Origin: a virus
IMG/VR virus record: IMGVR_UViG_3300046834_000025
Span: 1 to 64,000 of that record
Length of the DNA stretch: 64,000 nucleotides
Strand: one strand, 5' to 3'
Shown here: in pieces, positions 8,564-60,252 of the stretch
Numbering within the stretch: position 1 is the first letter of the stretch
How the letters are laid out: each line of letters begins with the position of its first letter
Notes under the pieces: model-generated
The model's input: the letters and a program-made list of their open reading frames with translations, nothing else
Told to the model about the DNA's origin: nothing
The model's database searches: none
Position numbers and translations under genes: made by a program

Positions 8564-9198
8564 GACGCAAGCCAGACGATGTGGTGGGATGCCTCAGCCA
8601 GTTCCCTGCGGAGCCTCGTGAGTTCCTGCACGCGGAACGCTGCGTAGTCGCCATCGTTCTCGTGGTACGCGCTGGTGCCGTCGTCGAAGGCTACGCCGTG
8701 GCCCACCGTGGTGTCGTCTGCATCCAGAACAGCGAAGACGGCGGGGTCGTCATGCCTGCGCTCCGGTGGCTTGGCAGTGTGGCAAGGACAGGCACAGTCT
8801 CCCTCGCCTGCGTGGCGCTGAGAGCACTCGTCATGGTAGCCGATCGAGCACTGCCTGTACCTCGGGTGGTCGTAGGGTCGGCGGTCTGTCCGGTCGGCAC
8901 CCGTGAGGCGGTCGGTGTACTGCGCGTCCGTCTCGCCAGGTAGAGCAGGCGGCATCTCGGGGTAGTACCTGCCCTTGGCAGGCAAGAGGGTCACGACCAG
9001 GTGGTCGATGAGGGACTGCTCTGTGACCTTCGTGACCACGTTGTCACCCGGCCAGGACTGCACGGCTGCAGTGATCGCAGCGGCAGTGAGGTGGCCTGCA
9101 AGGGTCTCGGTGCGATCTTTCCAGAACTCGACCTCTGCCTGAAGTCGCTGCACCTCTTCGAGGGTGGGTGTGTAGGGTGCGCTCTCGTTGTGGGTCAC
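8560..9198 (-). CDS. Hypothetical protein
   Basis: GTG start; CSIGYHDEC...CACPCH metal motif. Confidence 0.6.
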   Translation of the reverse strand: MTHNESAPYTPTLEEVQRLQAEVEFWKDRTETLAGHLTAAAITAAVQSWPGDNVVTKVTEQSLIDHLVVTLLPAKGRYYPEMPPALPGETDAQYTDRLTGADRTDRRPYDHPRYRQCSIGYHDECSQRHAGEGDCACPCHTAKPPERRHDDPAVFAVLDADDTTVGHGVAFDDGTSAYHENDGDYAAFRVQELTRLRRELAEASHHIVWLAS

Positions 9199-12633: not shown

Positions 12634-12919
12634 CGTTGTCCTCTCCCAACAGACCGTCGATGAACGAGAGCAGGATGTCGGCAAGCTCAGGACAGTTGCC
12701 GAACGACGCACCAGGAATCCACGGGTGTCGCTTACCGTCGATGCCGATGTAGTCGAGGTTCGCTCGCGCGTGCCGAAGAGCCCATTCGAGTTTCGAGTGG
12801 TGGCCGATCGGAAAGAAGTCGGTCTCCAGGTCGAACGGTCCAGGTGCGACCGGCGTGCGGGTGATCAACAGACCGGGCTTGCCTTCGACGGTTGAGACAG
12901 ACCAGGAGTTCGCGCTCAT
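12608..12919 (-). CDS. Hypothetical protein
   Basis: Preceded by GAGAGGAAACCG start-associated sequence. Confidence 0.65.
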   Translation of the reverse strand: MSANSWSVSTVEGKPGLLITRTPVAPGPFDLETDFFPIGHHSKLEWALRHARANLDYIGIDGKRHPWIPGASFGNCPELADILLSFIDGLLGEDNGGDQEEPR

Positions 12920-12939
12920 CGGTTTCCTCTCAAGAGATG

Positions 12940-17504: not shown

Positions 17505-18440
17505 ATGCCAGACAACGACTACCCTCTTGCCGACAGCGGTGATCGCACACCGCTGCATGGAGGCGCGATGCGCGACCGGCCACGAGGCAAAGGTCGGTTC
17601 GACTTGATCAGCCCGATCTTCCTGCAGGACCTTGCTCTCCTGATGGAGAAGGGTGCCGACAAGTACGCCGTGCGGAACTGGGAGCGTGGGTACTCGATCT
17701 CGCTCTGTGCCGACAGCGCGATGCGCCACCTGACGCAGTTCCTCGCAGGTGACGACACCGAGGACCACGTCATCCAGGCCGCGTGGAACCTGATGGTGAT
17801 ACACGCGATTCGGCGCATGGTCGAGCAGGGCAAGCTCCCCAAAGAACTGGCGGAGGGGTATGTCCCGCTTCACGTCGTGAACCCGATCACCGGCTCCATT
17901 TCGCACGACGGCGAGACGTATTCCAACAATGCCGACATCCCCGGTATCGAAGAAGACCCGACTACCCTTCTGGTGACCGAGGGAACGCCTTCTCTCGACG
18001 GCAGATTCATCGAGCCGAACGCGGTTCTCTGGGACGGCAATGAGGTACCGATCATCGCCTACCAGGGTGGCCGCCAGTACAACATGGGCCGTGCGACCGA
18101 CATCCGGCGCACGCCGACCGGCGAGATTCGAGCCGTGATCTTGCTCAAGGACGAGCCTGCCGACACGCCGACCTATGGCGCGTACCTGACCGGCTTGACT
18201 ACGCACACGAACGCAGACAACGTGATCGTCATCGAGACTGCAACACTCTTTGCCGTCTCCATGACCCTTGCCCCGCGATACGGTGCGCAGTCGCAGTGTC
18301 GGCTCTGCAAGGACGCGATCGGCTGGAACGGCTCGAGGTGGGTCGACGCCAGTGGAGACGCCGACCAGGCAGGCTTCTGCCGGGAGAGCAACGACCCTGA
18401 CCCGCAACACATCCCGAACATCGACGCGGACGGAGTCTGA
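17505..18440 (+). CDS. DUF5664 (dATP/dGTP diphosphohydrolase-like) domain fusion
   Basis: GKGRFDLI...GADKYAVRNWERG...SAMRHL...EDHVIQAAWN; TACAAT at 17455. Confidence 0.8.
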   Translation: MPDNDYPLADSGDRTPLHGGAMRDRPRGKGRFDLISPIFLQDLALLMEKGADKYAVRNWERGYSISLCADSAMRHLTQFLAGDDTEDHVIQAAWNLMVIHAIRRMVEQGKLPKELAEGYVPLHVVNPITGSISHDGETYSNNADIPGIEEDPTTLLVTEGTPSLDGRFIEPNAVLWDGNEVPIIAYQGGRQYNMGRATDIRRTPTGEIRAVILLKDEPADTPTYGAYLTGLTTHTNADNVIVIETATLFAVSMTLAPRYGAQSQCRLCKDAIGWNGSRWVDASGDADQAGFCRESNDPDPQHIPNIDADGV

Positions 18441-18761: not shown

Positions 18762-19028
18762 ATGGCTGAGACTCCTCGACGCAGTACCGTCACCTCCACC
18801 GAGACACACGTCTCGCACACCGCCAAGCCACTCGGCAGGTCCCGAGAGAACCCGCCACACCTCGGCGATCTTCGAGCGTTCGTGGCCGCGTGCGAGGGTC
18901 TGCCGGACGACCTATCTGTCTACATCAACAACGGCTCTCTGGACGAGGGTGGACGGCGTAACATCACCTTCTTTGTCCGGCATCGAGTCACGGACGGCAC
19001 CGAGGAAGCGGAGCCGGTCGATGTCTAG
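18762..19028 (+). CDS. Hypothetical protein
   Basis: 88 aa, in operon. Confidence 0.6.
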   Translation: MAETPRRSTVTSTETHVSHTAKPLGRSRENPPHLGDLRAFVAACEGLPDDLSVYINNGSLDEGGRRNITFFVRHRVTDGTEEAEPVDV

Positions 19029-19528: not shown

Positions 19529-19801
19529 GTGCTGACGCACCTGGTCGATCGCACGACCCGCGAGCCGTGCCCAACCAACGACAATGCGCTCTGCACGATC
19601 ACCGATGAGGGACATCGGCACGTGTTCGCGTCAAACTGCCCGTGCGAACGGCACGAGAATACGAACGCACGCTGCACGTGCTTCTGTCCTCCGAAGGAGC
19701 ACGTACCGGAGCTATGCCGGAGATGTGGTGGTCGCGTAGAGACCATGATCCGGCGTGGTACCGGCGTCTGCTCCGGCCCGTGTGCAGACACAGTACCCTG
19801 A
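19529..19801 (+). CDS. Cys-rich Zn-finger protein
   Basis: Many C/H pairs, CRRCG. Confidence 0.55.
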   Translation: MLTHLVDRTTREPCPTNDNALCTITDEGHRHVFASNCPCERHENTNARCTCFCPPKEHVPELCRRCGGRVETMIRRGTGVCSGPCADTVP

Positions 19802-32797: not shown

Positions 32798-33306
32798 TGA
32801 ACTCCGGCGTGCCGACCCTGGCCAACCTGCTCAGCAAGTTCGAGCAGGTCGGCTCGGGGTGCTGGGAGTGGGTCAACCCGACTCACAAGCAGGGCTACGG
32901 TACGATCAGGTGGGACGGGCGAACGGTCTTCGCTCACCGGCTGATGGTGGCTGCAGTCTACGGCGTAACGCTCGAACAGATCCGAGAAGATGTAGTCCGG
33001 CACTCATGTGACAACACGTCGTGTGTCAACCCGCTTCATCTGCTCGTAGGAACACAACAGCAGAACTGTTTCGATCGGCTAATCCGTGGCCGACGCGTCG
33101 AACGACTAAACAACACAAGGCGTCTCTCCGTCGACATCGTTACGGAGATGCGACGTCGAGCACGGCAAGGCGAACGAGGTGTTGCTTTGGCACACGAGTT
33201 CGGAATTTCGAAGAGCAGCACCTATCAAGCAATCCGAGGCTACACATGGTCATGGATTGAAGAACCACCCGTCACAACACTGAGAGGAAACCGACATGAA
33301 CAGTAA
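32797..33306 (+). CDS. HNH endonuclease with C-terminal HTH
   Basis: CWEW...GYG...AHR...VRHSCDNTSCVNPLHL. Confidence 0.88.
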   Translation: MNSGVPTLANLLSKFEQVGSGCWEWVNPTHKQGYGTIRWDGRTVFAHRLMVAAVYGVTLEQIREDVVRHSCDNTSCVNPLHLLVGTQQQNCFDRLIRGRRVERLNNTRRLSVDIVTEMRRRARQGERGVALAHEFGISKSSTYQAIRGYTWSWIEEPPVTTLRGNRHEQ

Positions 33307-33702: not shown

Positions 33703-33728
33703 ACCACCGCCAAGAAGGGAAACCGACC

Positions 33729-37671: not shown

Positions 37672-38117
37672 TCCCTGGTCTGGGTGAGCCAGAATGCGAG
37701 CTCACGTACAAGGAGATTGACGCGCGGTTCGTCAGCATCCCTGAGCTCGCTCAGCTAACCGGCTTCTCTGCCAGGCAGATTGACTACCTCATCCGGTCGG
37801 ATCGGCTCTACCCAACGCACTACACGTGGAGCAATCTGCACCTCAAGGCACCCGTGTGGGTTTGGTTGCCAGGCACCGAGATCAGCAGCGGGTACCGCCG
37901 CATCTGGGAGCGAGGCAGCGACCGGCTGAGGTACGTGCTCCTGCTTTCCGCCTGGGTGAAGATGGGCATGAGCACTGCGTCAGCCGTTGCTCTGGCCAAG
38001 CACCATGTCTTTGGAACGGAACTGCCAGTATTCCTTCTCCCGCTGGCGGATGTGGAACTGAGAGAGGAAACCGATGAACGACGCAATGAAGCGAGTCAAG
38101 AAGGCTCTCAAGGGTGA
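37668..38117 (+). CDS. MerR-like HTH DNA-binding protein
   Basis: SIPELAQLTGFSARQIDYL...SGYRRIW. Confidence 0.6.
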   Translation: MIPGLGEPECELTYKEIDARFVSIPELAQLTGFSARQIDYLIRSDRLYPTHYTWSNLHLKAPVWVWLPGTEISSGYRRIWERGSDRLRYVLLLSAWVKMGMSTASAVALAKHHVFGTELPVFLLPLADVELREETDERRNEASQEGSQG

Positions 38118-39508: not shown

Positions 39509-39548
39509 GCCTACCTGGTTCAGTTCCAACAAGAGAAAGAGGAAACCG

Positions 39549-40310
39549 ATGGATCACATCTCTGTCAAGGGAAGCGAGCTCCGTATCGACCCCGATGCGC
39601 AGCGTCTCTTCGAGCAGCACCGCGCCAACAAGATCGCAGAGGAGTGGGACGAGCGTTCTGTCGGCGCGATCACCGTTTCCCTCCGGGACGATGGCGGCAT
39701 GTACATCCTCGATGGGATGCACCGCGTTGCTGCCGGTCTCCTGGTCGACCCCGACATGATGTTCTTCTGCATCATCCACAAGAACATGTCGGCAGAGGAC
39801 GAAGCGACCCTGTTCCTGCGCTCAAACAACGAGCGCAAGAGCGTCAACAGGTTCGACACCTACCGGATGTACCTCCGGGCGAACGACGAAGTCGCACTCC
39901 GCATTCAGGCGGAGGTGATGGCTGCCGGACTGTCGGTCGGACGCAGGGCATCTACCAACCAGGTATCTGCCGTCGTTACCCTCCGGCGCTGGGCAGAGAA
40001 GGACGTACCTCCGTACGGTCTGATCACCCGCGCACTCAACATCAACGAGGTTGCATGGGGGCGCACCGCTGAGGCATGGGACAACACCGTCATCGCCGCA
40101 GTCTGCGAAGTCTTGCACAAGAACCCGCACATCCAGATCAACCGGCTGGTGCATACCCTTCAGAAGTTCGTCGTGGCTCAGTGGGCTGCAAAGGGTGTGG
40201 AGCGCATCGGCGGTAGCGGTGGTTCCGCGTCACGTCCGAGCAGCACTGCAGCCTGCATCTGCGACGAGTACAACAAGAGGCTGAGCTTGGCCAAGCGCAT
40301 CGGTCTCTGA
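39549..40310 (+). CDS. ParB-like (DUF6551-type) protein
   Basis: LRIDPDAQR...ITVSLRDDG-MYILDGMHR...EATLF. Confidence 0.75.
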   Translation: MDHISVKGSELRIDPDAQRLFEQHRANKIAEEWDERSVGAITVSLRDDGGMYILDGMHRVAAGLLVDPDMMFFCIIHKNMSAEDEATLFLRSNNERKSVNRFDTYRMYLRANDEVALRIQAEVMAAGLSVGRRASTNQVSAVVTLRRWAEKDVPPYGLITRALNINEVAWGRTAEAWDNTVIAAVCEVLHKNPHIQINRLVHTLQKFVVAQWAAKGVERIGGSGGSASRPSSTAACICDEYNKRLSLAKRIGL

Positions 40311-40619: not shown

Positions 40620-40671
40620 TGATTCTTGTCAGCAAGCCTGACCCCCAAGATTCATCGTTGAGAGGAAACCG

Positions 40672-41058
40672 ATGATCATCACCATCGACACGAGCCAGCC
40701 TCTGTCTCAGATCGACTTGGACGCGCTCATGGCGCTCACGGGTGTCGTCGCCCCTTCGCCGAACGGCCAGGAACCGCCGTCTGCGCCGGTCTCCGTCGTG
40801 CCCACCAAGAAGGCTGCGCCTGCCAAGAAGGCCGCTGCACCGAAGGCTGAGCCGAAGCCGGAGACGCCCGCAGAACTCGCTGCGGACGAGGACGAGGCTG
40901 CCAAGCTGCAGGAGACCGCTCACGCCAAGGCGAGTGGCCTTCTCGCCGATGGTCAGCGTGACCGCGTGATCGCGGCTCTCAAGGAGATCGGCGCTGCACG
41001 TGTCGCCGAAGTCCCGGCTGACAAGCTGCAGGAGTTCATCGACGCTCTGGGTGAGTGA
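40672..41058 (+). CDS. Hypothetical protein typical upstream of DUF2800
   Basis: Ala/Lys linker and LKEIGAARVAEVP C-terminal domain; exact start-associated sequence. Confidence 0.7.
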   Translation: MIITIDTSQPLSQIDLDALMALTGVVAPSPNGQEPPSAPVSVVPTKKAAPAKKAAAPKAEPKPETPAELAADEDEAAKLQETAHAKASGLLADGQRDRVIAALKEIGAARVAEVPADKLQEFIDALGE

Positions 41059-41319: not shown

Positions 41320-42509
41320 GCGAGCACATGCGGCTTCACGCAACGCTCTCACCTTCAAGTGCAGAGCGGTGGCTGGAGTGTCCGGCATCAATCCGGCTCA
41401 TCAGTACTCTCGAGCGCGGTGAAGACAGCAGTACCGTCTACGCCGAAGAGGGTACGCGGGCACACAACCTGGCCGAGATCGAAGCCTCCTACCAGTTCGA
41501 CATGATCACGGTGGAAGACTACCGGACTCGCCGGACAGCCTGGTTGCGAATCGCCGAGACACACGGTGACGATGTGGAGGAAATGGATCGGCACGTTCGC
41601 GTGTACGTCCGTCTCCTGCAGGACATTATGGCTAGCAGGCCGCACGCCACCCTACGCCTGGAACAGCGGGTGCAGACCGGCGTTCCTGGTTGTTGGGGAA
41701 CGGGAGACGCAATCATCATCGCGCCGACCACGATCGATGTCGTCGACTTCAAGTACGGCCAGGGCGTCGGCGTCATCGCACACGAGAACCCGCAACTCAT
41801 GCTCTACGGCCTCGGTGCGCTCGAGATGTTCGATGGTGTGATCGGAGACACGCAGTCTGTCACCGTTCATATCTGTCAGCCACGGGTCGGAGGGATGTCA
41901 CACTATACCATCGGTGCGAAGGAACTTCGAGCCTGGCGCGACGATGCCGTCATGCCGATCGCACGAGAGACGCAGCACCCTGATGCCCGATTCGGGCCGT
42001 CCGAGGTTGCCTGTCGCTGGTGTCCGGCATCAGGTATCTGCAAGGCACGAGCGCGCTACATCACGGAGCGTGACTTCGGCAGTCCTGACGTGCTGTCGAT
42101 GGACGAGCTCGCGGAAGCCTTCAAGACACTCACCGACATCCGAGACTGGTGCAATGCCGTTGAGGCAGAAGCCTTGAAGCAGGCGTACAGCGAGGGTGAA
42201 GAACTGCCTGGACTGAAGGTCGTGATGTCGGGCGGCAAGCGGTCGATCCCTGATCCTCCGGCTGCCATCAAGAAACTGCAGGCAGCAGGCTTCTCGCTCG
42301 AACAGGTGAGCCGTCTCTCCATGAAGACATTGGGAGACTTGGAGCGCCTGGTCGGCAAGGACAAGCTACCCAACGTGCTAGGTCCCTTGCTAGTCAAGAG
42401 CCCTGGCAAACCTGCTCTCGTGCCTGAGAGCGACAATCGGCCAGCCGTCACCGCACTAACGGCTGCCGCAGAAGACTTCCAGAGTCCTCTGGAGGATGAG
42501 CAAGGATGA
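41316..42509 (+). CDS. Cas4-like exonuclease (DUF2800)
   Basis: HATLSPSSAERWLEC, GTGD, VVDFKYG, NPQLMLYGLG, CRWCP..C. Confidence 0.88.
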   Translation: MSEHMRLHATLSPSSAERWLECPASIRLISTLERGEDSSTVYAEEGTRAHNLAEIEASYQFDMITVEDYRTRRTAWLRIAETHGDDVEEMDRHVRVYVRLLQDIMASRPHATLRLEQRVQTGVPGCWGTGDAIIIAPTTIDVVDFKYGQGVGVIAHENPQLMLYGLGALEMFDGVIGDTQSVTVHICQPRVGGMSHYTIGAKELRAWRDDAVMPIARETQHPDARFGPSEVACRWCPASGICKARARYITERDFGSPDVLSMDELAEAFKTLTDIRDWCNAVEAEALKQAYSEGEELPGLKVVMSGGKRSIPDPPAAIKKLQAAGFSLEQVSRLSMKTLGDLERLVGKDKLPNVLGPLLVKSPGKPALVPESDNRPAVTALTAAAEDFQSPLEDEQG

Positions 42510-42525
42510 GAGAGATGAGAACGCT

Positions 42526-43119
42526 ATGGCAGAGAACGACACCACCGAGGCACGCCGTGTCATCACGGGCCGTGTCCGGCTGAGCTTCCCGTACCTGTTC
42601 AAGCCGCGACCCCCGATGGCTGGCCAGGAGGGAGAGCCGAAGTACAGCGTGATGCTGTTGATCCCCAAGAGCGACACCGTCACGATGGAAAAGCTCCGCA
42701 AGGCCGAGAAGCTTGCCCTCGAACAGGGCAAGGCCGGAACGTTCGGCTCGAACTTCAAGATGTCCTCTCTTGCACCGTCCATCATCAAGGACGCCGACGA
42801 GGACGGCACTGCGGAGGACTACCCGGAGCGTGAGGGCATGTACTACATGACCGTCAACGCTCAGGAAGCCTTCAAGCCGCAGGTGGTCGACAAGAACCTC
42901 AACCCGATCATCGACCAGAGCGAGGTCTACTCCGGCGTCTGGGCCAGGGTCTCCGTCTCCGCGTTCCCGTACAAGTACGGGGACATGAAGCGGGGCATCT
43001 CCTTCGGCCTCAACAACGTCCAGGTTCTCGGCTACGGTGAGAGCCTGCGCGGTGGCAAGAGCGCCGACCAGGACTTCGACGCGGTCGAGATCGCGGAAGA
43101 GGACGCGAGTCTGCTCTGA
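42526..43119 (+). CDS. ssDNA-binding protein (DUF2815)
   Basis: VRLSFPYLF, KYSVMLLIPK, VYSG, GISFGLNNVQ, acidic tail. Confidence 0.88.
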   Translation: MAENDTTEARRVITGRVRLSFPYLFKPRPPMAGQEGEPKYSVMLLIPKSDTVTMEKLRKAEKLALEQGKAGTFGSNFKMSSLAPSIIKDADEDGTAEDYPEREGMYYMTVNAQEAFKPQVVDKNLNPIIDQSEVYSGVWARVSVSAFPYKYGDMKRGISFGLNNVQVLGYGESLRGGKSADQDFDAVEIAEEDASLL

Positions 43120-43146
43120 TTCACCCCCACGTCGGGCTCGACGTGG

Positions 43147-43236
43147 TAAGATAGGTGTGGTGCCGCGCGGCGGTTGGGTTATGTCGGTTTCCTCTCCCTC
43201 GCGCGGCACTACTCCCTCCCTGAGAGGAAACCGATG
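43147..43236 (+). promoter_or_regulatory. Extended -10 promoter plus hairpin carrying an anti-SD/anti-SAS loop
   Basis: TGG-TAAGAT; stem 43157-43170/43199-43212; loop ATGTCGGTTTCCTCTC. Confidence 0.6.
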
Positions 43237-43461
43237 ACGCAGTACGTGAAGGTCGAAATCGACGAGGGTCGTGCCTACACCTACGGGTGGGACGGCGAAG
43301 AGCCTCTCAAGCCTGGCGACCAGGTGGTGCTTCCTAGCAACATGGTCCGCAATCGGACCTTCTCCGGACGAGTTCTGCGAATTCTGGCAGAGTCGGATTT
43401 CAAGGGGCCGATCAAGAACATCCTCTCGAAGGTCAATGACGACTTGGAAAGCCTTCTGTAG
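43234..43461 (+). CDS. Hypothetical protein
   Basis: YTYGW..PLKPGDQVVLP. Confidence 0.7.
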   Translation: MTQYVKVEIDEGRAYTYGWDGEEPLKPGDQVVLPSNMVRNRTFSGRVLRILAESDFKGPIKNILSKVNDDLESLL

Positions 43462-43464
43462 AGG

Positions 43465-43493
43465 TTGCGTTGTAGCATCAAACATGCTACAAT
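43465..43493 (+). promoter_or_regulatory. SigA promoter overlapped by a palindromic operator
   Basis: TTGCGT-N17-TACAAT with extended TG; TTGTAGCAT-N5-ATGCTACAA. Confidence 0.75.
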
Positions 43494-43542
43494 GATCGAA
43501 CGTACCAGTCGACCGGCTGGACGAGTAGTGGAAGGAATCACA

Positions 43543-44823
43543 GTGTTCAAGAAGAGCCTGCTCTGTCTGTGTTCGAGCGTTGCGCTCATTCTCGGCATGG
43601 GCCTCATCGCCTCTCCGGCTGAGGCTGCTCCGGGTGACGAGTTCATCGTCAACGGCGACTTCAGCGACTACGACCCGGCGACTGGCGCGATCACGGACGG
43701 CGTGACGACGACCGACTTCTCGCTCACCACCTCTCTCGCTGAGGCATCTTCGCCTGGCAACGGGGACATGTACGACCCCGGCGTGTACGCCGTCTCGACC
43801 AACGCGGGCGCGCTCCACAACCAGTGGATCGAGCAGGCGGGCGACAACCCCAAGATGGTCCTCAACGGCTTCACCGAAGGCGTGCAGACCGTCTGGCAGC
43901 AGACCGCTGACGGCGTCACCTGCGACACGCCCGGATCGACCATCGGGTTCGAGTTCACCGCTGATGTCGCCAACGTCCTTCCGCTCGACCAGTACAGCGA
44001 CGGCGGAGCGAACATTTCGGTCTACATCAACGACCAGCTCATCGGCTCCGCCGACCTCACATCCAACGACGGTACGCCCGTGTCGATCTCGAGCGCGATG
44101 GTTCCGGCTGCTGATGCGTTCGTCATCGAGGTTCGGAACAGCGCGACCGTCTATGTCGGCAACGACTTCTCGCTCGACAACCTGTCGCTGGTCCAGACCG
44201 GCGATTGCACCGCTCCGGTGGCCGTCCTGTTCGATGTCGCGCCGACCGACCCGACGTGTGAAGCCGATGGCTCGCTCGACACCTCGCTGTTCCCGATCGT
44301 CCGCGAGGGCTACACCCTCACCGTCGACCGGGCCTTCGACGGTCCCGGCGACTACGTGATCACTGCCACCGCTGCTGACGGCTTCTTCTTCTCCGGCGAC
44401 GGCGACCCGTTCGTCCGCTCCGTGACTGTCACCGTGGGCGAACGTCTGCCCGCTGCGGAGTGCCGTGTTGGTGGGCTCACGATCGGCTACTACAAGAACC
44501 ACGCCGTCTCCGAGGCTACCTGGGATGCGGCACGCGCCGGTCTGAACACCCTGTTCGGGGCGTACCCGAACTGGAACAACGCGCTCGCGGTGCTGAACGC
44601 CAAGCCGACCAATGACGGCTCGGTGCAGTTGCTCCGTCAGGCAATCGCGTTCGCTCTGAACGTCGAGACCATCGACGGCTTCGCTGAGAACATCATGCCG
44701 AACGGCATGACCGCCGAGGCGTACCTCGACTACCTGAACGCCACGCCGACAGCGTGGGACACCAGGTCGGAACGGCTCGCGATCGCTGCGATCCTCGACG
44801 CTGCCAACCAGCACGTCGTCTGA
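43543..44823 (+). CDS. Secreted acidic protein (moron)
   Basis: Signal peptide ending AEA; IVNGDF jelly-roll-like domain, PTDPTC domain, GLTIGYYKNH domain. Confidence 0.8.
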   Translation: MFKKSLLCLCSSVALILGMGLIASPAEAAPGDEFIVNGDFSDYDPATGAITDGVTTTDFSLTTSLAEASSPGNGDMYDPGVYAVSTNAGALHNQWIEQAGDNPKMVLNGFTEGVQTVWQQTADGVTCDTPGSTIGFEFTADVANVLPLDQYSDGGANISVYINDQLIGSADLTSNDGTPVSISSAMVPAADAFVIEVRNSATVYVGNDFSLDNLSLVQTGDCTAPVAVLFDVAPTDPTCEADGSLDTSLFPIVREGYTLTVDRAFDGPGDYVITATAADGFFFSGDGDPFVRSVTVTVGERLPAAECRVGGLTIGYYKNHAVSEATWDAARAGLNTLFGAYPNWNNALAVLNAKPTNDGSVQLLRQAIAFALNVETIDGFAENIMPNGMTAEAYLDYLNATPTAWDTRSERLAIAAILDAANQHVV

Positions 44824-44831
44824 CCCGAACT

Positions 44832-44864
44832 GGGCCGGAGCATCCCACGGGGGTGCTCCGGCCC
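44832..44864 (+). terminator. Hairpin after the moron gene
   Basis: GGGCCGGAGCATCCC / GGGGTGCTCCGGCCC. Confidence 0.6.
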
Positions 44865-44885
44865 TACACCATTGAGAGGAAACCG

Positions 44886-45071
44886 ATGAGCTACCTCGAT
44901 AGACTCCTGACAGAGCCTGCCGTCAAGTGTCAGTGCCCGTCCCGCGACTCTGGTGCTGCAGCCTTCCACGGCGGCAAGCCGGACGGCTGCCCACGGGATG
45001 CCCTGGTGCCACGCGGAGTGGTCACCAGTCCAGCACTCTGTGCCGCCTGCCTGCACGGCTGCATGGACTGA
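44886..45071 (+). CDS. Small Cys-rich protein
   Basis: Exact start-associated sequence; CQC, CAAC. Confidence 0.6.
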   Translation: MSYLDRLLTEPAVKCQCPSRDSGAAAFHGGKPDGCPRDALVPRGVVTSPALCAACLHGCMD

Positions 45072-45074
45072 CCG

Positions 45075-45614
45075 ATGGACCTCACCCCGGCAAAGACCTA
45101 CGAACAGATGCACAGTGGTCTTCACTGGGCCTTTGGACGGGCGAAGGACTACGTGTGCATCGAGTGTGGCCAGCAGGCTGAAGATTGGGCGTACCAGTAT
45201 ACTTCCATTGATCCTCAAATAGATACGAAGAACAGAGTCTACAGCGAGTCTTTCGATGATTACGCGCCCATGTGCCGTAGCTGCCATCGTCGGTTCGACA
45301 TGCTCAGACCCGAACGGCGCGAAGCTCAGCTAGCCCACCTAGCTCGAGTGCATGCTGCGATCGCAGCCGATCCTGTTGCGCAAGAACGACGCCGCGAAGC
45401 AGGAGTCAAGGGACGACAGGTAATAGCTGAAATGCGGGCACAAGGGGTGCCTATGGCTAGAGGACGGAGAACGGACACTGCAAACCTACGCGTACTAGGG
45501 AAGATGGTTGGGAGTATACGACGACGTTGCAACACTTGTGGACTAGAGACGGCGGCAGGCCCGCTAGCGCGTCATCAGACTAAGTCTGGACATACAGGCT
45601 GGACGGTAGCATAA
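45075..45614 (+). CDS. HNH-like endonuclease
   Basis: CIECG..AEDWAY...YAPMCRSCH. Confidence 0.75.
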   Translation: MDLTPAKTYEQMHSGLHWAFGRAKDYVCIECGQQAEDWAYQYTSIDPQIDTKNRVYSESFDDYAPMCRSCHRRFDMLRPERREAQLAHLARVHAAIAADPVAQERRREAGVKGRQVIAEMRAQGVPMARGRRTDTANLRVLGKMVGSIRRRCNTCGLETAAGPLARHQTKSGHTGWTVA

Positions 45615-47404: not shown

Positions 47405-47478
47405 CTGATGAAGCTCATCATGTTCGCGTTCCTGGTCGGCGCGATTCTTTCTGTCAGTATCACACCGAGAGGAAACTG

Positions 47479-47646
47479 ATGAGAGTTGCAGCGCGGGTCA
47501 CCATCGTCATGCCGGACGGCACTACCTACGACTACGCTCCTGGTGAGGCACAGGTCCAACTAGTTGACACCGTCGTTGAGGACAAGAACACCAAGAAGAA
47601 GTCGCCGGTCAGGTACTTCAACATCGTTGCGCCGGTTGTGCCATGA
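47479..47646 (+). CDS. 55-aa hypothetical protein
   Basis: GAGAGGAAACTGATG start. Confidence 0.55.
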   Translation: MRVAARVTIVMPDGTTYDYAPGEAQVQLVDTVVEDKNTKKKSPVRYFNIVAPVVP

Positions 47647-50547: not shown

Positions 50548-50661
50548 GACGAACAGCAGGGTCCGTGGTGGCCCGGAGGCAACGAAGACTACGAGCACTA
50601 GAGGTACACGTAGCTCGCTTCCCCTGTTACTAGTCTCCCTTTCAAAGACGAGAGGAAACCG

Positions 50662-50964
50662 ATGTCAACTGCCTCAATCTCAGGCACCATCGCCGGTTCC
50701 CGTCCTCTGTCACTAGGTTTCAACGTCGCCACTCCTCCACTTCTCATGGGTCGCAGCGTACTTCCGTGCGCCGGTCGTGCGAGCTTGTTCTTCCCCGCCA
50801 CCTACCGAAACTGGGCACGAGTCCGAGAGGCTTGTGCCCTCTGTGACACTTGTCCTGTAGTTCGCGAATGTCTGGCATGGGCCGTCGCCAGACCTGACCT
50901 CGACGGTATCTGGGGCGGGACCACACCGCCTCAACGTCGCCGAATACGAACAGGGAAAATCTGA
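50662..50964 (+). CDS. whiB: Second WhiB-family protein
   Basis: C...LFFP...CDTCPVVREC...GIWGGTT. Confidence 0.85.
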   Translation: MSTASISGTIAGSRPLSLGFNVATPPLLMGRSVLPCAGRASLFFPATYRNWARVREACALCDTCPVVRECLAWAVARPDLDGIWGGTTPPQRRRIRTGKI

Positions 50965-56961: not shown

Positions 56962-59900
56962 TCACCTCAGAAGGTAGGACTGTTGCGGATGGAAGTGGAA
57001 TGTCGTTTCGTCAGAAGCAAAGCCGACCTGTTGGACGATCTGCCCGACTGCATTGGGGTTCTTCGTACCGATCTGGCCGGGTTGTGTCTGGAGGAATTGC
57101 AGACCGGGCTGCAGTCCGACCAGGGCTGGAACGTAGCCAAGAGTGAAGACTGGGACGGCATCTCCTGGCTCGGCATCCTCCAAGACGAAGCCGTGGGCCT
57201 CATGCGGTTCGATGGTTCCGGCATGATAGGGTGAGAGGACCGAACTTGCTTCCACCATCAGCGCATCCCAGTACACGAGCTCTGTGGGGATGTTGGATCC
57301 ATTGAAGATTCGAATCAGCGCACTTGTCGTGTCTCCCGGCAGAGTTACAGTTACGGAGACTCTATAGGTGCCTACAGCATTGGCTGCAGCGACCCCCGGT
57401 ACAGTGTACTGCACACCGCCGTTGTTTGATGGAGACGTGATGTATACCCAGATGTTTCGTGCTGCCGCACTGAGAGACCCAGTCTGGACGTTCGCCACTC
57501 TGATAGTGCCAGAGATAGTATACGTTCTGCCTGGAACCAGGAAGGAGGGCATGCCAGCAGAGACACCGATGTAGGCACTGCTGTTGACAGTCGCGCCATT
57601 CGGCGTGATCAGCAATGAGGCGACTCCATCAGCCGCAAAGCTAGTCGACCTGGCTATGGTTGCGTTGCTAGCGATGTATCCACTGGCGTCTGTTTCGATC
57701 GATGGGTTCGGAAGCAGGTTCATGGCACCCGCCTGCGCTGGTCGAACGAAGAACACTCCGTTGTTGTCCCATGTGTTCACAAGCATACCATACCGAACGG
57801 CGTCACTGACCCGCATCGAGTTCGTCAGGAGCTTGTACGGCGGCAGGCTGTTGTATGCGATGCGATCTGGGTCCAGAATGCCGGTCGTCAGGTCGCTTGC
57901 GTCAGAGTCATACTGCGTGGAGCCCGTGAAGTCTAGTGGGAGCCAAGCACCGTCGTAGAGCTCGTAGACAGCGGTGATCTTCCCGCCGACCAAATGGGAT
58001 GTCGAGGCGTGCGGTGCGCCGTCCCACACGGCATCGTAGGAGTCGCCATCGAAGTACCGACCAGTGGCCTCTTCCTGCTCGATCAGGGCAGCGTTGATGC
58101 GCCAGACGGCGCTTGCATTCGGGTTGACAACCTGGATACCACCGAGATATGCTACAATGCCGCCACTGGGAACCGGCGCTGCGACTTTCAGTTCCACCCA
58201 TTCATCTGTCAGCAGAGTGACTGGTGGGCTGTTGAAGTGCTCTACGAGGCCTGCAGCGGCATCGTAGTAGCGAAGGCTGACATAGGACCCCACGCCAGAG
58301 CCGGACTCGAGACGGGCAAAGACGGTGATCGCCCACGACTGTCCCTCGCTCACCGGGAAGCCAGGAATGCCGCCGTCCCACGAAATCGAATGCAACTCAG
58401 CGGCAGCCGTGTTCAGCGCCCGCGCGTCATGGGTGCCCGTGCCAGGAATCGGCACGGAGACATCAGTGAGTTCTCGTGTGAAGGTACCTGTGCCGGTCGA
58501 TGTCCAGCCTGCCAGGTCGAGTTCGAACGACGGGTTGGAGCAGTGGTTCTGCCTCGCACGGGTACGAGTGTACCACATCGAGCCTGGCTCGCGACCCTTG
58601 ATGAGCGTGTTGGCTCCGACACCATCAACAGCGTGGGCCGGGTCGGCAGCCTCAGCGATGTGATACGAAACTGTCCACGGCGCAACCTCACTGAATGACG
58701 AGACCGTCCAGGTGCCGTCGTAGGGTGCCCCTACGCGGGTAACGACGATCAGGCCACCGATCGGCATTGTCATGCCGCCCACGTCGTCCAGGGTCAGCCT
58801 GGCGACACCGCCTGTGGATGTGCCCTCGATGTACGTGTCCAGGCCGGGAGCTACCTCGAGCAGGGCTGCATCCACCTGCCAGACATCTGCGTTGGCTACA
58901 CTCGGAGAGGAGACACCTGGTGCCACCGTCACGGCAGTGGCCGGGACTACTGCCGTGACGTATGGTCGCACCCAGGTACCATCAGCGGGTAGCTGAACCG
59001 GCGCACCGGAGATACTAACGCCGCCAACGATTGCGCCGACTGAGTCGTAGAACCACACCGTCGCAGTGTAGTCGGCTCCACCGATACCAGACATCAGTCT
59101 AGCGTAGGCAGAGAACGTGATTGTCTGGCCGACTGTAACTGGGATGCGATTTGCAGTTGCAAGAGTAAGATAGTGCGTGTTGGCAGTTCCGTCGTTAGTC
59201 AGTTGTGCTACGGCAGTACCAGACTGCATGCGCGCCGAAGGCGTTCGGACCACGGGTGGTATCACCCTGGTCAAGGCTGCACGCACGCCCGACCAGCCCG
59301 CTGTGTCGATCTCGAAAGACGGATTGGGGAACAGGTTGGACCTAGAGCCTAGAATCTCTGCCTGCACGATCCGCCACAAGCCATCCGGCAGAAGGTTGCC
59401 ACCATCGGAGCTCGCGTAGTAGAGAACGTCCTCTGCCGTAGGCTCGTAGTCAGAGATCGAGATTCGACCATCAGCCGTGTTAGCGAGGTTGTGTGCGTCA
59501 ATCGCCGTCACACCAGAGATCGCGGCCTTAATCGCAATCTCGTTCAGGGTCGAGTCACCGACCACGAGATCGCCTGCGTTCTCAATGATCTCATCAACCT
59601 TTGGGTCTGAGGCATCGACCCAGATCATGTTGTCGGCGTCCCAGACCCACGGTTTCATGTTGTCGTTCGTGTCATACCAAAGATCGTTGTCTGGCATATC
59701 CGGTGTGCCGTCCGGCCACGGCGGCTCGTCCTGGCGATAGATGTCATTGCCACCATCACCGCCAGATGGTGTGGGTGCGGGTGGCAAGGAGTCAGGCGGG
59801 ATGTACTCACCAGAGATAACCGGCTGCGCACCAGGGAGATCGATCACACGCTGATAGTCATCGCTGATCAGAATGGTGACTGGCTGCTCATACGGGCCTT

Positions 59901-60252
59901 CAGGCATGACAGCGAGATCGTGGATCGTAAGCGGAACCTCGATCGGTTCCTCTGCATCGATGATCGTGACCTCTGCGACCCATCGCTTTCCGGGTGCGCC
60001 ACCGATGTCGGGAGAGACGTTGGTGCTCTCCTCCCAGGTCTCGATGAGCGGTGACTCGATGGTGATGGTGACGGCTTCGTCGTCGTTCTCTGTGACGATG
60101 AATGGACCTTCACTGCCAACCCAGACACGCTCACCAGCAGAGATTTCTGCGAAGTCTAGCTCGAGGATCGTTGAACCAGAGGGCATGTCTACTGCCAGTG
60201 TGGGACCGATGTACTCCCACCTGACCTCGTTGAGAAGCCCTTCGATCGCCAC
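56962..60252 (-). CDS. Minor tail/receptor-binding protein with three carbohydrate-binding-like modules
   Basis: NLFPNPSFE, NHCSNPSFE and NLLPNPSIE repeats; DLWYDT motif. Confidence 0.8.
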   Translation of the reverse strand: MAIEGLLNEVRWEYIGPTLAVDMPSGSTILELDFAEISAGERVWVGSEGPFIVTENDDEAVTITIESPLIETWEESTNVSPDIGGAPGKRWVAEVTIIDAEEPIEVPLTIHDLAVMPEGPYEQPVTILISDDYQRVIDLPGAQPVISGEYIPPDSLPPAPTPSGGDGGNDIYRQDEPPWPDGTPDMPDNDLWYDTNDNMKPWVWDADNMIWVDASDPKVDEIIENAGDLVVGDSTLNEIAIKAAISGVTAIDAHNLANTADGRISISDYEPTAEDVLYYASSDGGNLLPDGLWRIVQAEILGSRSNLFPNPSFEIDTAGWSGVRAALTRVIPPVVRTPSARMQSGTAVAQLTNDGTANTHYLTLATANRIPVTVGQTITFSAYARLMSGIGGADYTATVWFYDSVGAIVGGVSISGAPVQLPADGTWVRPYVTAVVPATAVTVAPGVSSPSVANADVWQVDAALLEVAPGLDTYIEGTSTGGVARLTLDDVGGMTMPIGGLIVVTRVGAPYDGTWTVSSFSEVAPWTVSYHIAEAADPAHAVDGVGANTLIKGREPGSMWYTRTRARQNHCSNPSFELDLAGWTSTGTGTFTRELTDVSVPIPGTGTHDARALNTAAAELHSISWDGGIPGFPVSEGQSWAITVFARLESGSGVGSYVSLRYYDAAAGLVEHFNSPPVTLLTDEWVELKVAAPVPSGGIVAYLGGIQVVNPNASAVWRINAALIEQEEATGRYFDGDSYDAVWDGAPHASTSHLVGGKITAVYELYDGAWLPLDFTGSTQYDSDASDLTTGILDPDRIAYNSLPPYKLLTNSMRVSDAVRYGMLVNTWDNNGVFFVRPAQAGAMNLLPNPSIETDASGYIASNATIARSTSFAADGVASLLITPNGATVNSSAYIGVSAGMPSFLVPGRTYTISGTIRVANVQTGSLSAAARNIWVYITSPSNNGGVQYTVPGVAAANAVGTYRVSVTVTLPGDTTSALIRIFNGSNIPTELVYWDALMVEASSVLSPYHAGTIEPHEAHGFVLEDAEPGDAVPVFTLGYVPALVGLQPGLQFLQTQPGQIGTKNPNAVGQIVQQVGFASDETTFHFHPQQSYLLR

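Follow-up and report, generated by a model that had tools for sequence, protein, structure and literature searches.

A conserved hairpin after the SSB gene of a soil phage carries a loop antisense to a start-associated motif and is a candidate regulator of translation

In this study, we report a hairpin located after the gene for a single-stranded DNA-binding protein in a phage genome recovered from soil, conserved in relatives of this phage, whose apical loop, predicted to be largely open, is exactly complementary over 13 to 16 nt to seven gene start regions of the same genome. The explanation that we favour, although tentatively and with a confidence slightly short of even, is that a leader RNA, or an RNA processed from it, pairs with initiation regions bearing a shared 13-nt motif, in cis and probably also in trans. 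There are good grounds for proposing an antisense role of the loop, and its action in trans is plausible. If confirmed, the element would be a regulator of translation in Actinobacteria that is encoded by a phage and has multiple targets; if control in cis alone holds, it would still be a new conserved leader element not represented in Rfam.

Genomic setting and the start-associated motif

The stretch of DNA analysed, referred to below as the window, comprises the first 64 kb (64,000 nucleotides) of the 77.8-kb IMG/VR record IMGVR_UViG_3300046834_000025, which is 94% complete according to CheckV and has a G+C content of 60.6%. The sequence of the window was present in soil and rhizosphere metagenomes, with no RNA run among the runs listed as containing it, and four soil DNA runs contained near-identical contigs, the listed differences being confined to positions 43239-43244 and 43393. 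Head, packaging and tail genes occupy the minus strand at both ends of the window. A plus-strand block located at about 33-54 kb holds small early genes together with genes for a ParB-like protein, an exonuclease, a Gp2.5-like ssDNA-binding/annealing protein (SSB), a family-A DNA polymerase and a WhiB protein. Given the presence of the WhiB gene, the sequence points to an actinobacterial host. Among cultured phages, no megablast match to positions 42000-45000 of the window was found, nor any tblastn match to the 75-aa protein encoded downstream of the hairpin, while all matches to the SSB were below 60% identity and came from unrelated phages.

The 13-mer GAGAGGAAACCGA occurs in eight exact copies in the whole 77.8-kb record. 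Seven of them abut the ATG of a gene and the eighth is the reversed copy in the loop of the hairpin (hairpin 2 in Table 1). In the start-linked copies, the last A of the motif is either the A of the ATG or lies 2 nt ahead of it (0-2 nt from the ATG). From base composition, only about 0.001 exact copies per strand are expected in 64 kb. When up to two mismatches were allowed, 13 matches were obtained against 1.9 expected, and none of 100 shuffled sequences reached that number. Together with the seven exact copies, two copies with one mismatch and at least one with two mismatches (at 33714, abutting an ATG) are start-linked. The dozen target genes proposed in a previous reading of the sequence without database searches (hereafter, the sequence-only reading) is thus a generous count. 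The motif contains the Shine-Dalgarno core, whereas its other half, AAACCGA, is not accounted for by rRNA pairing.

The motif is also present in a related complete IMG/VR genome of 80.8 kb (G002), with nine exact forward copies and 14 copies with up to two mismatches, located 0-6 nt from start codons. Several of the G002 copies lie 25-45 nt downstream of repeated promoter or GTGnTAnnAT sites, and motif-bearing leaders are preceded by three near-identical promoters of the form TTGCAT-N18-TGTTATGAT. These three promoters are located at 68,636-68,701, 70,840-70,919 and 74,571-74,652 in record coordinates (L311), and each is followed by a short leader hairpin, ACC, the 13-mer and the start codon, an arrangement that resembles ESAS (extended SAS) plus SAS, the start-associated sequences of other actinophages considered below. 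The pattern from promoter to motif is less regular in the window than in G002. The motif would accordingly appear to serve as the ribosome-binding site (RBS) of promoter-proximal leaders, and the element after the SSB gene seems to be one such promoter-leader unit, distinguished by a much larger hairpin that contains the motif antisense.

As a separate observation, the 10-mer CGACCAGGTG was found 12 times on both strands against about 0.2 occurrences expected from composition, at 8994, 14013, 14188, 23087, 30153, 43317, 48103 and 56494 on the plus strand and at 19538, 20502, 35108 and 53747 on the minus strand. Its copies are mostly intragenic with dissimilar flanks, and it is possibly a recognition or modification site.

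Table 1. Positions of the start-motif copies, of the element after the SSB gene and of the Cluster K hairpin. Positions are those of the window unless a phage is named.
Feature	Position	Strand	Remarks
Motif copy, start of 103-aa gene upstream of minus-strand head/packaging genes	12919-12931	-	Exact
Motif copy, start of 114-aa gene	33282-33294	+	Exact; complementary to the loop over 16 nt (33282-33297)
Motif copy, start of 91-aa gene	38062-38074	+	Exact; overlaps the stop codon of the gene upstream
Motif copy, start of ParB-like / DUF6551 gene	39537-39549	+	One mismatch
Motif copy, first gene of the exonuclease-SSB operon	40660-40672	+	Exact
Gp2.5-like ssDNA-binding/annealing protein (SSB) gene	42496-43119	+	PHROG 112, E 5e-50; homologues 57-72% identity
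Hairpin 1	43127-43146	+	Predicted fold: 8-bp stem with a 4-nt loop; lacks a U-tract; 3' arm finishes with the TG of the extended −10
Extended −10, TGG (43144-43146) plus TAAGAT (43147-43152)	43144-43152	+	Conserved in relatives
Hairpin 2	43157-43212	+	14-bp GC-rich lower stem, 43157-43170 / 43199-43212
Reversed exact copy of the motif, in the loop	43184-43196	-	Plus-strand RNA is antisense of the motif
UCGGUUU, proposed seed	43184-43190	+	Complementary to AAACCGA
Motif copy (cis), RBS of 75-aa gene	43222-43234	+	Exact; 9 nt past hairpin 2
75-aa gene	43234-43461	+	Located 3' of the element at six of the eight loci; not assigned to any Pfam or PHROG family
Motif copy, start of 61-aa gene upstream of DNA polymerase	44874-44886	+	Exact
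Motif copy, start of 55-aa gene	47467-47479	+	One mismatch
Motif copy, start of WhiB-family gene	50650-50662	+	Exact; Pfam PF02467, E 3e-15
Cluster K hairpin	Anaya L173 39851-39902 (record ~59,850-59,901); Adephagia L174 358-415		

Anatomy and conservation of the element

Direct reading of the DNA bore out the parts of the element that the sequence-only reading had described: the TGG-TAAGAT box at 43147, the 14-bp stem of hairpin 2 at the positions given in Table 1, the loop antisense to the motif (the exact reversed 13-mer, extended to 16 nt against 33282-33297, of which 43181-43196 is the reverse complement), its exact cis partner downstream of the hairpin, and the fact that the minus-strand copy in the loop leads to ATA. 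The element begins with hairpin 1, which may be a weak terminator or insulator for the SSB operon. A two-hexamer promoter scan returned nothing at the element and no −35 box was found, so that the candidate promoter rests on the extended −10 and on its conservation. The TG-TA--AT of the extended −10 is invariant in all eight loci known (see below) between varying flanks. From its position, transcription is predicted to start at about 43157-43161, the foot of hairpin 2. The annotated neighbours, exonuclease and SSB upstream and DNA polymerase downstream, are all encoded on the plus strand; hence, the loop would be made as antisense RNA whichever promoter drives it.

In the predicted fold of hairpin 2, the CCU and CC of the loop are engaged with conserved Gs in two short upper helices, and the apical loop is left open. 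The region 43155-43245 folds with a minimum free energy of −40.8 kcal/mol (z = −2.7), and 2 of 200 shuffled sequences folded at least as stably. Duplexes predicted between the loop and the consensus motif ranged from −19.5 to −25.5 kcal/mol in every relative. A scan for intrinsic terminators over 42000-45500 found none, the stem of hairpin 2 being followed by a mixed C/U tail with no U-tract. Since there is neither a U-tract nor a terminator-like site after the hairpin, the discrete RNA of about 60 nt proposed in the sequence-only reading is unsupported, and it is more probable that the hairpin belongs to the 5' leader with which the downstream mRNA begins, or to a piece processed from that leader in the manner of c4 of phage P1.

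No Rfam family reached its gathering score in the window, C4 antisense RNA and 6C included, and only chance-level matches (E up to 10) were obtained around the element; the tRNA search also found none. The conserved 5' part of the loop, GGTTGGGTTAGTC (43172-43186 in the window, and likewise in the loops of the relatives), seems to resemble a universal stretch of 16S rRNA at about position 1090, possibly by chance. An ORF of 18 codons (43181-43237) that runs from an ATG in the loop at 43181 to a TGA at 43235, overlapping the ATG of the 75-aa gene, was dropped from consideration; the loop ATG is absent in the relatives and the ORF is probably non-functional. The 75-aa protein itself is predicted to form a small beta-barrel (pLDDT 71). 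It was considered as an Hfq-like protein and rejected as such, the PriA helicase (3'-DNA-binding domain) giving the best, though weak, structural matches (Foldseek E 0.14, TM 0.55-0.60).

Relatives were collected by an SSB protein search followed by alignment-based retrieval, which yielded the complete G002 genome (locus L112) and 60 metagenome contigs. The unit after the SSB gene recurs in seven of the contigs so obtained (L112, L114-L117, L119 and L120), that is, in eight loci when the window is included, and the SSB proteins of the contigs bearing it are 53-86% identical to one another. At the site of hairpin 1, most of the eight loci have a hairpin of differing sequence, and RNAalifold returned just six largely conserved pairs, beside the −10. 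In the alignment of hairpin 2 (A2), the 11 aligned pairs of the lower stem were 100% paired, with three compensatory changes, and the whole structure outscored all slid controls. Conservation of the loop equals that of the stem. None of the eight loci departs from the columns UCGG-UU-C, in contrast to the drift of the remaining loop, and L120 has an A inserted within the U run of UCGGUUU. In ensemble folding, UCGGUUU was largely unpaired in all eight hairpins, with a weak 2-bp helix in the window and in L116, and the CCUC(U)C half of the loop was held by conserved Gs in two weak helices of 2-3 bp. This predicted anatomy suits an antisense pairing seeded in the loop that then opens the weak helices.

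The eight loci were used to build a covariance model (R1), which detected exactly one copy per locus and none in the other metagenome contigs. A structured pattern scan of genomic and viral contigs, of which 83 listed loci were rescanned, provided no R1 match besides G002, and no host or prophage was found among the matches listed. Similarly, the matches listed in an exact 15-mer scan of IMG/VR were, apart from G002, single-copy only, i.e., attributable to chance. IMG/VR peptide-pattern scans with the SSB, a 452-aa protein and the polymerase returned nothing; the single match for the 75-aa protein (L009) was discarded, as it was an AT-rich unrelated contig without the motif.

The sequence-only reading had suggested checking whether loop and motif co-vary in related phages. 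Both were nearly constant in the eight loci, and matching changes were observed in one distant contig (L121, SSB 46% identical). This contig has another start motif, GAAAGGAACCG, in five forward copies, and the hairpin after its SSB gene has an apical loop with an 8-nt Watson-Crick complement of GAAAGGAACCG, a match whose probability by chance we estimate at about 1 in 1000 and which was noticed post hoc. It can be added that two of the L121 motif copies (17,990-18,030 and 18,855-18,895) each follow the same small hairpin (TTGGGGT / ACCCCAA) and AACCGG, the start motif of this contig being part of a longer repeated leader.

Pairing in cis, pairing in trans and other explanations

In the mechanism that we propose, the stem-loop would be transcribed on the plus strand from its own extended −10, in addition to any read-through from the SSB operon. 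The strong GC stem would display an apical loop antisense to the start-associated RBS motif. Contact would begin between the open UCGGUUU and the AAACCGA half, and the duplex would then extend into the Shine-Dalgarno half and displace the two weak upper helices. The non-Shine-Dalgarno half of the motif could be important here, as it is the half opposite the open stretch of the loop. With 13-16 bp formed over the RBS and the start codon, initiation would be blocked or the mRNA would become open to cleavage. The nearest target would be the RBS of the adjacent gene where it bears the motif, and about ten targets are proposed in trans: small early genes, the ParB-like and WhiB genes, and the genes that open the exonuclease-SSB block and the minus-strand block preceding the head genes. 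We infer transcription and where it starts, the occurrence of pairing in vivo and the sign of the effect, as well as the role of the hairpin as a global switch advanced in the sequence-only reading.

The position of the exact 13-nt partner, only 9 nt past the hairpin and with a predicted duplex of −29 kcal/mol in the window, also fits a narrower explanation. According to it, the loop would have a single partner, the RBS of the next gene; the lower stem would persist in the resulting pseudoknot, which would tune the translation of that gene, and the likeness to the other copies would arise because the local RBS is itself a copy of the motif. Across the eight loci, 80.8% of the loop:RBS cells were paired against 40-57% when the partner was slid, and the loops of L121 and L113 are also complementary to their own adjacent RBS. 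In the window and in L114, a copy of the motif serves as the adjacent RBS, and the RBS of L117 and L120 comes close to one. As a motif-type RBS is thus located 9-25 nt downstream of the hairpin in four of the eight loci, action in cis could give much of the signal, which counts against pairing in trans. However, the CGG:CCG pairs between loop and RBS are broken in three of the eight loci while UCGG is still invariant, and the variation is nearly one-sided, the changes falling almost entirely on the RBS with the loop constant. Specifically, the adjacent RBS in L112, L116 and L119 has lost the AAACCGA half and the loop is still antisense to the motif. L112 and L116 belong to one SSB lineage and L119 groups with L117 (86% SSB identity); therefore, the loop has been kept at least twice without its cis partner. 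Between L117 and L119, moreover, the downstream gene and its RBS have been swapped with the loop core unchanged, from which the loop would seem to travel with the SSB end and not with the downstream gene. In addition, both helices of the pseudoknot would exceed one turn, and fitting a 13-bp helix into a loop of 28 nt, with a linker of 9 nt to span the 14-bp stem, would be sterically strained. Considering all of this, we regard control exclusively in cis as somewhat unlikely.

The joint between L117 and L119 is itself mosaic: right after the element, one carries a zinc-finger-like ORF and the other a homologue of the 75-aa gene.

Returning to pairing with dispersed start regions, none of the nine exact motif copies of G002 is within reach downstream of the hairpin, and the partners of its loop could only be those nine copies elsewhere in the genome. 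The persistence of the loop antisense next to an altered RBS is what a trans-acting partner would predict. On the other hand, all eight instances of the unit share one origin and the covariation of loop and motif comes from one distant contig, both of which count against the trans model, and any RBS rich in purines would be a possible partner for the part of the loop that faces the Shine-Dalgarno core. It must also be considered that the promoter of the element is of the same class as those preceding the proposed targets (GTGnTAnnAT in G002), so that no temporal logic is visible.

The position of hairpin 2, which begins at about the predicted +1, is typical of 5' stabilisers, and a purely structural hairpin has also to be weighed. 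Its loop would be read by a protein or would have no pairing role, the complementarity to the motif being secondary, and the hairpin would act as a 5' stabiliser, as a processing site (e.g., for RNase III), as a pause or antitermination signal, or as a second weak terminator of the SSB operon. The leaders of same-class promoters in G002 also open with a small hairpin, two more distant relatives (L122 and L123) have a plain hairpin alone after the SSB gene, and the total pairing of about 20 bp is near the size of an RNase III substrate. Nevertheless, such a hairpin leaves unexplained the exact 13-mer antisense match, its retention across contigs whose SSB proteins have diverged as far as 53-86% identity, and the matching change in L121, and it has no Rfam family to which it could be assigned. 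We consider this explanation improbable.

Finally, the element might operate as DNA, either with the motif as an asymmetric protein-binding site comparable to stoperators or with a single-stranded DNA hairpin as a replication or primosome signal. Its location between the SSB and the replication genes is in line with this, the weak likeness of the 75-aa product to the PriA domain keeps a replication role in view, and compensatory changes would preserve hairpins in DNA as well as in RNA. There is also a precedent in the stoperators of Cluster A phages, which are 13-bp asymmetric sites scattered near gene boundaries (PMC3203893). Nonetheless, the Shine-Dalgarno core of the motif and its gene-oriented lock to the ATG (0-5 nt) point to mRNA, the inverted pair of copies is not conserved, with the forward copy lost in three of the eight loci, and the PriA fold match is weak. 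A role at the DNA level is, in our opinion, very improbable.

Comparison with start-associated sequences and with other antisense RNAs

SAS were first described in 2011, and their role was still called unknown in papers from 2024-25. The original authors asked whether they are bound by a host or phage product, "either RNA or protein" (PMC3203893). Like the SAS of the Cluster K mycobacteriophages and the Cluster EF Microbacterium phages (PMC3203893, PMC7302621, PMC11373665), the motif described here is an asymmetric 13-nt sequence with about 10-19 copies, gene-oriented and abutting start codons, which contains a Shine-Dalgarno core with conservation well beyond it and is associated mostly with non-structural genes, as has been reported for Cluster K (PMC3203893). 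As with ESAS before SAS, a repeated promoter often precedes it, as seen in G002. In contrast, GAGAGGAAACCGA is unrelated to GGGATAGGAGCCC or GGGAAAGGACCCC, and the phages share no DNA similarity. The motif in the window is therefore best seen as an analogue of the SAS of Clusters K and EF and not as a homologue. In this context, an open loop holding the exact antisense of the motif would be a concrete candidate for an RNA answer to the question raised by the SAS authors.

A parallel was found in Cluster K itself. Phages of subcluster K1 have a single SAS copy in opposite orientation that is not at a gene start (PMC3203893); in the literature on SAS, we found no paper that places this reversed copy in a hairpin or calls it antisense. 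In the K1 phages, the reversed SAS forms the 10-12-nt apical loop of a conserved two-tier hairpin (alignments A3 and A5). In Anaya, it has one mismatch, is the sole reversed match with up to two mismatches in the 40.8 kb scanned, and corresponds to CCUCCUAUCC, the apical loop of an inner hairpin enclosed by an outer stem of 10 bp (z = −4.0). The surroundings of the hairpin (170 nt, within a structured leader of about 290 nt) are conserved in 142 Cluster K phages; the hairpin lies downstream of an invariant TAGACT block and its fold is kept with compensatory changes. In Adephagia, the hairpin is located between genes 92 and 93, the intergenic region in which late transcription has been reported to initiate (PMC11373665), which means that the SAS antisense sits in the late leader. 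The right arm of Cluster K genomes has been described as carrying early lytic genes.

It was also proposed in the sequence-only reading that silencing by the loop would explain why the motif is conserved. The comparison speaks against this. Amgine keeps 16 SAS copies with a drifted loop and shows no covariation between SAS and loop; the loop has also drifted in Ekdilam and TClif and is absent in Yuna and SirPhilip, and the SAS is unchanged in Amgine, Yuna and SirPhilip. Similarly, no reversed SAS with up to two mismatches was found in the 48.7 kb scanned of AnnaSerena, a Microbacterium phage of Cluster EF that does have a SAS. Since the SAS is kept without an intact loop in some phages, antisense pairing cannot be the reason for which these motifs are conserved, and the antisense hairpin would be, at most, a regulator that exploits them. 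A broader proposal is that antisense-SAS hairpin RNAs are the missing phage-encoded partner of SAS and have arisen independently in at least two unrelated lineages of actinophages. In this proposal, the hairpin would lead the transcript of the replication genes in the soil clade and the late operon in Cluster K, where it could shut off the SAS-bearing early genes at the onset of late expression. If this is true, translation across an entire phage regulon would be governed by a single small RNA loop; we consider the proposal possible although doubtful.

Among antisense RNAs in general, the c4 RNA of phage P1 is made from the same transcript as its target, and its loops pair with downstream sequences that include the RBS, acting both in cis and in trans. 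Within its operon, C4 antisense RNA acts as a repressor of the icd-ant genes (PMC8198154). The element has no sequence or Rfam relationship with the c4 of the P1/P7 immI operon. Moreover, RNase P releases c4, which acts on a single target operon, while the element has about ten dispersed candidate targets. A second comparison is provided by the 6C sRNA of Actinobacteria, whose C-rich loops bind many mRNAs without a chaperone (PMC6486639). Both have a pyrimidine- or C-rich loop that faces G-rich initiation regions in high-GC Gram-positive hosts. Unlike the element, which is phage-encoded and has a single loop with an exact 13-nt match and no Rfam match, 6C is encoded by the host, carries two C-rich loops and recognises degenerate targets.

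Leaders with an anti-Shine-Dalgarno sequence that act in cis, such as RNA thermometers and riboswitch platforms, occlude the RBS of the next gene from within its 5' leader. In hairpins of the thermometer type, the Shine-Dalgarno sequence is one strand of the hairpin, whereas the RBS adjacent to the element lies outside hairpin 2, so that a pseudoknot would be needed; and, unlike in the thermometer type, the anti-RBS loop persists where the RBS in cis has changed. With respect to these systems, the element thus appears to be a new, conserved leader RNA outside the families of Rfam.
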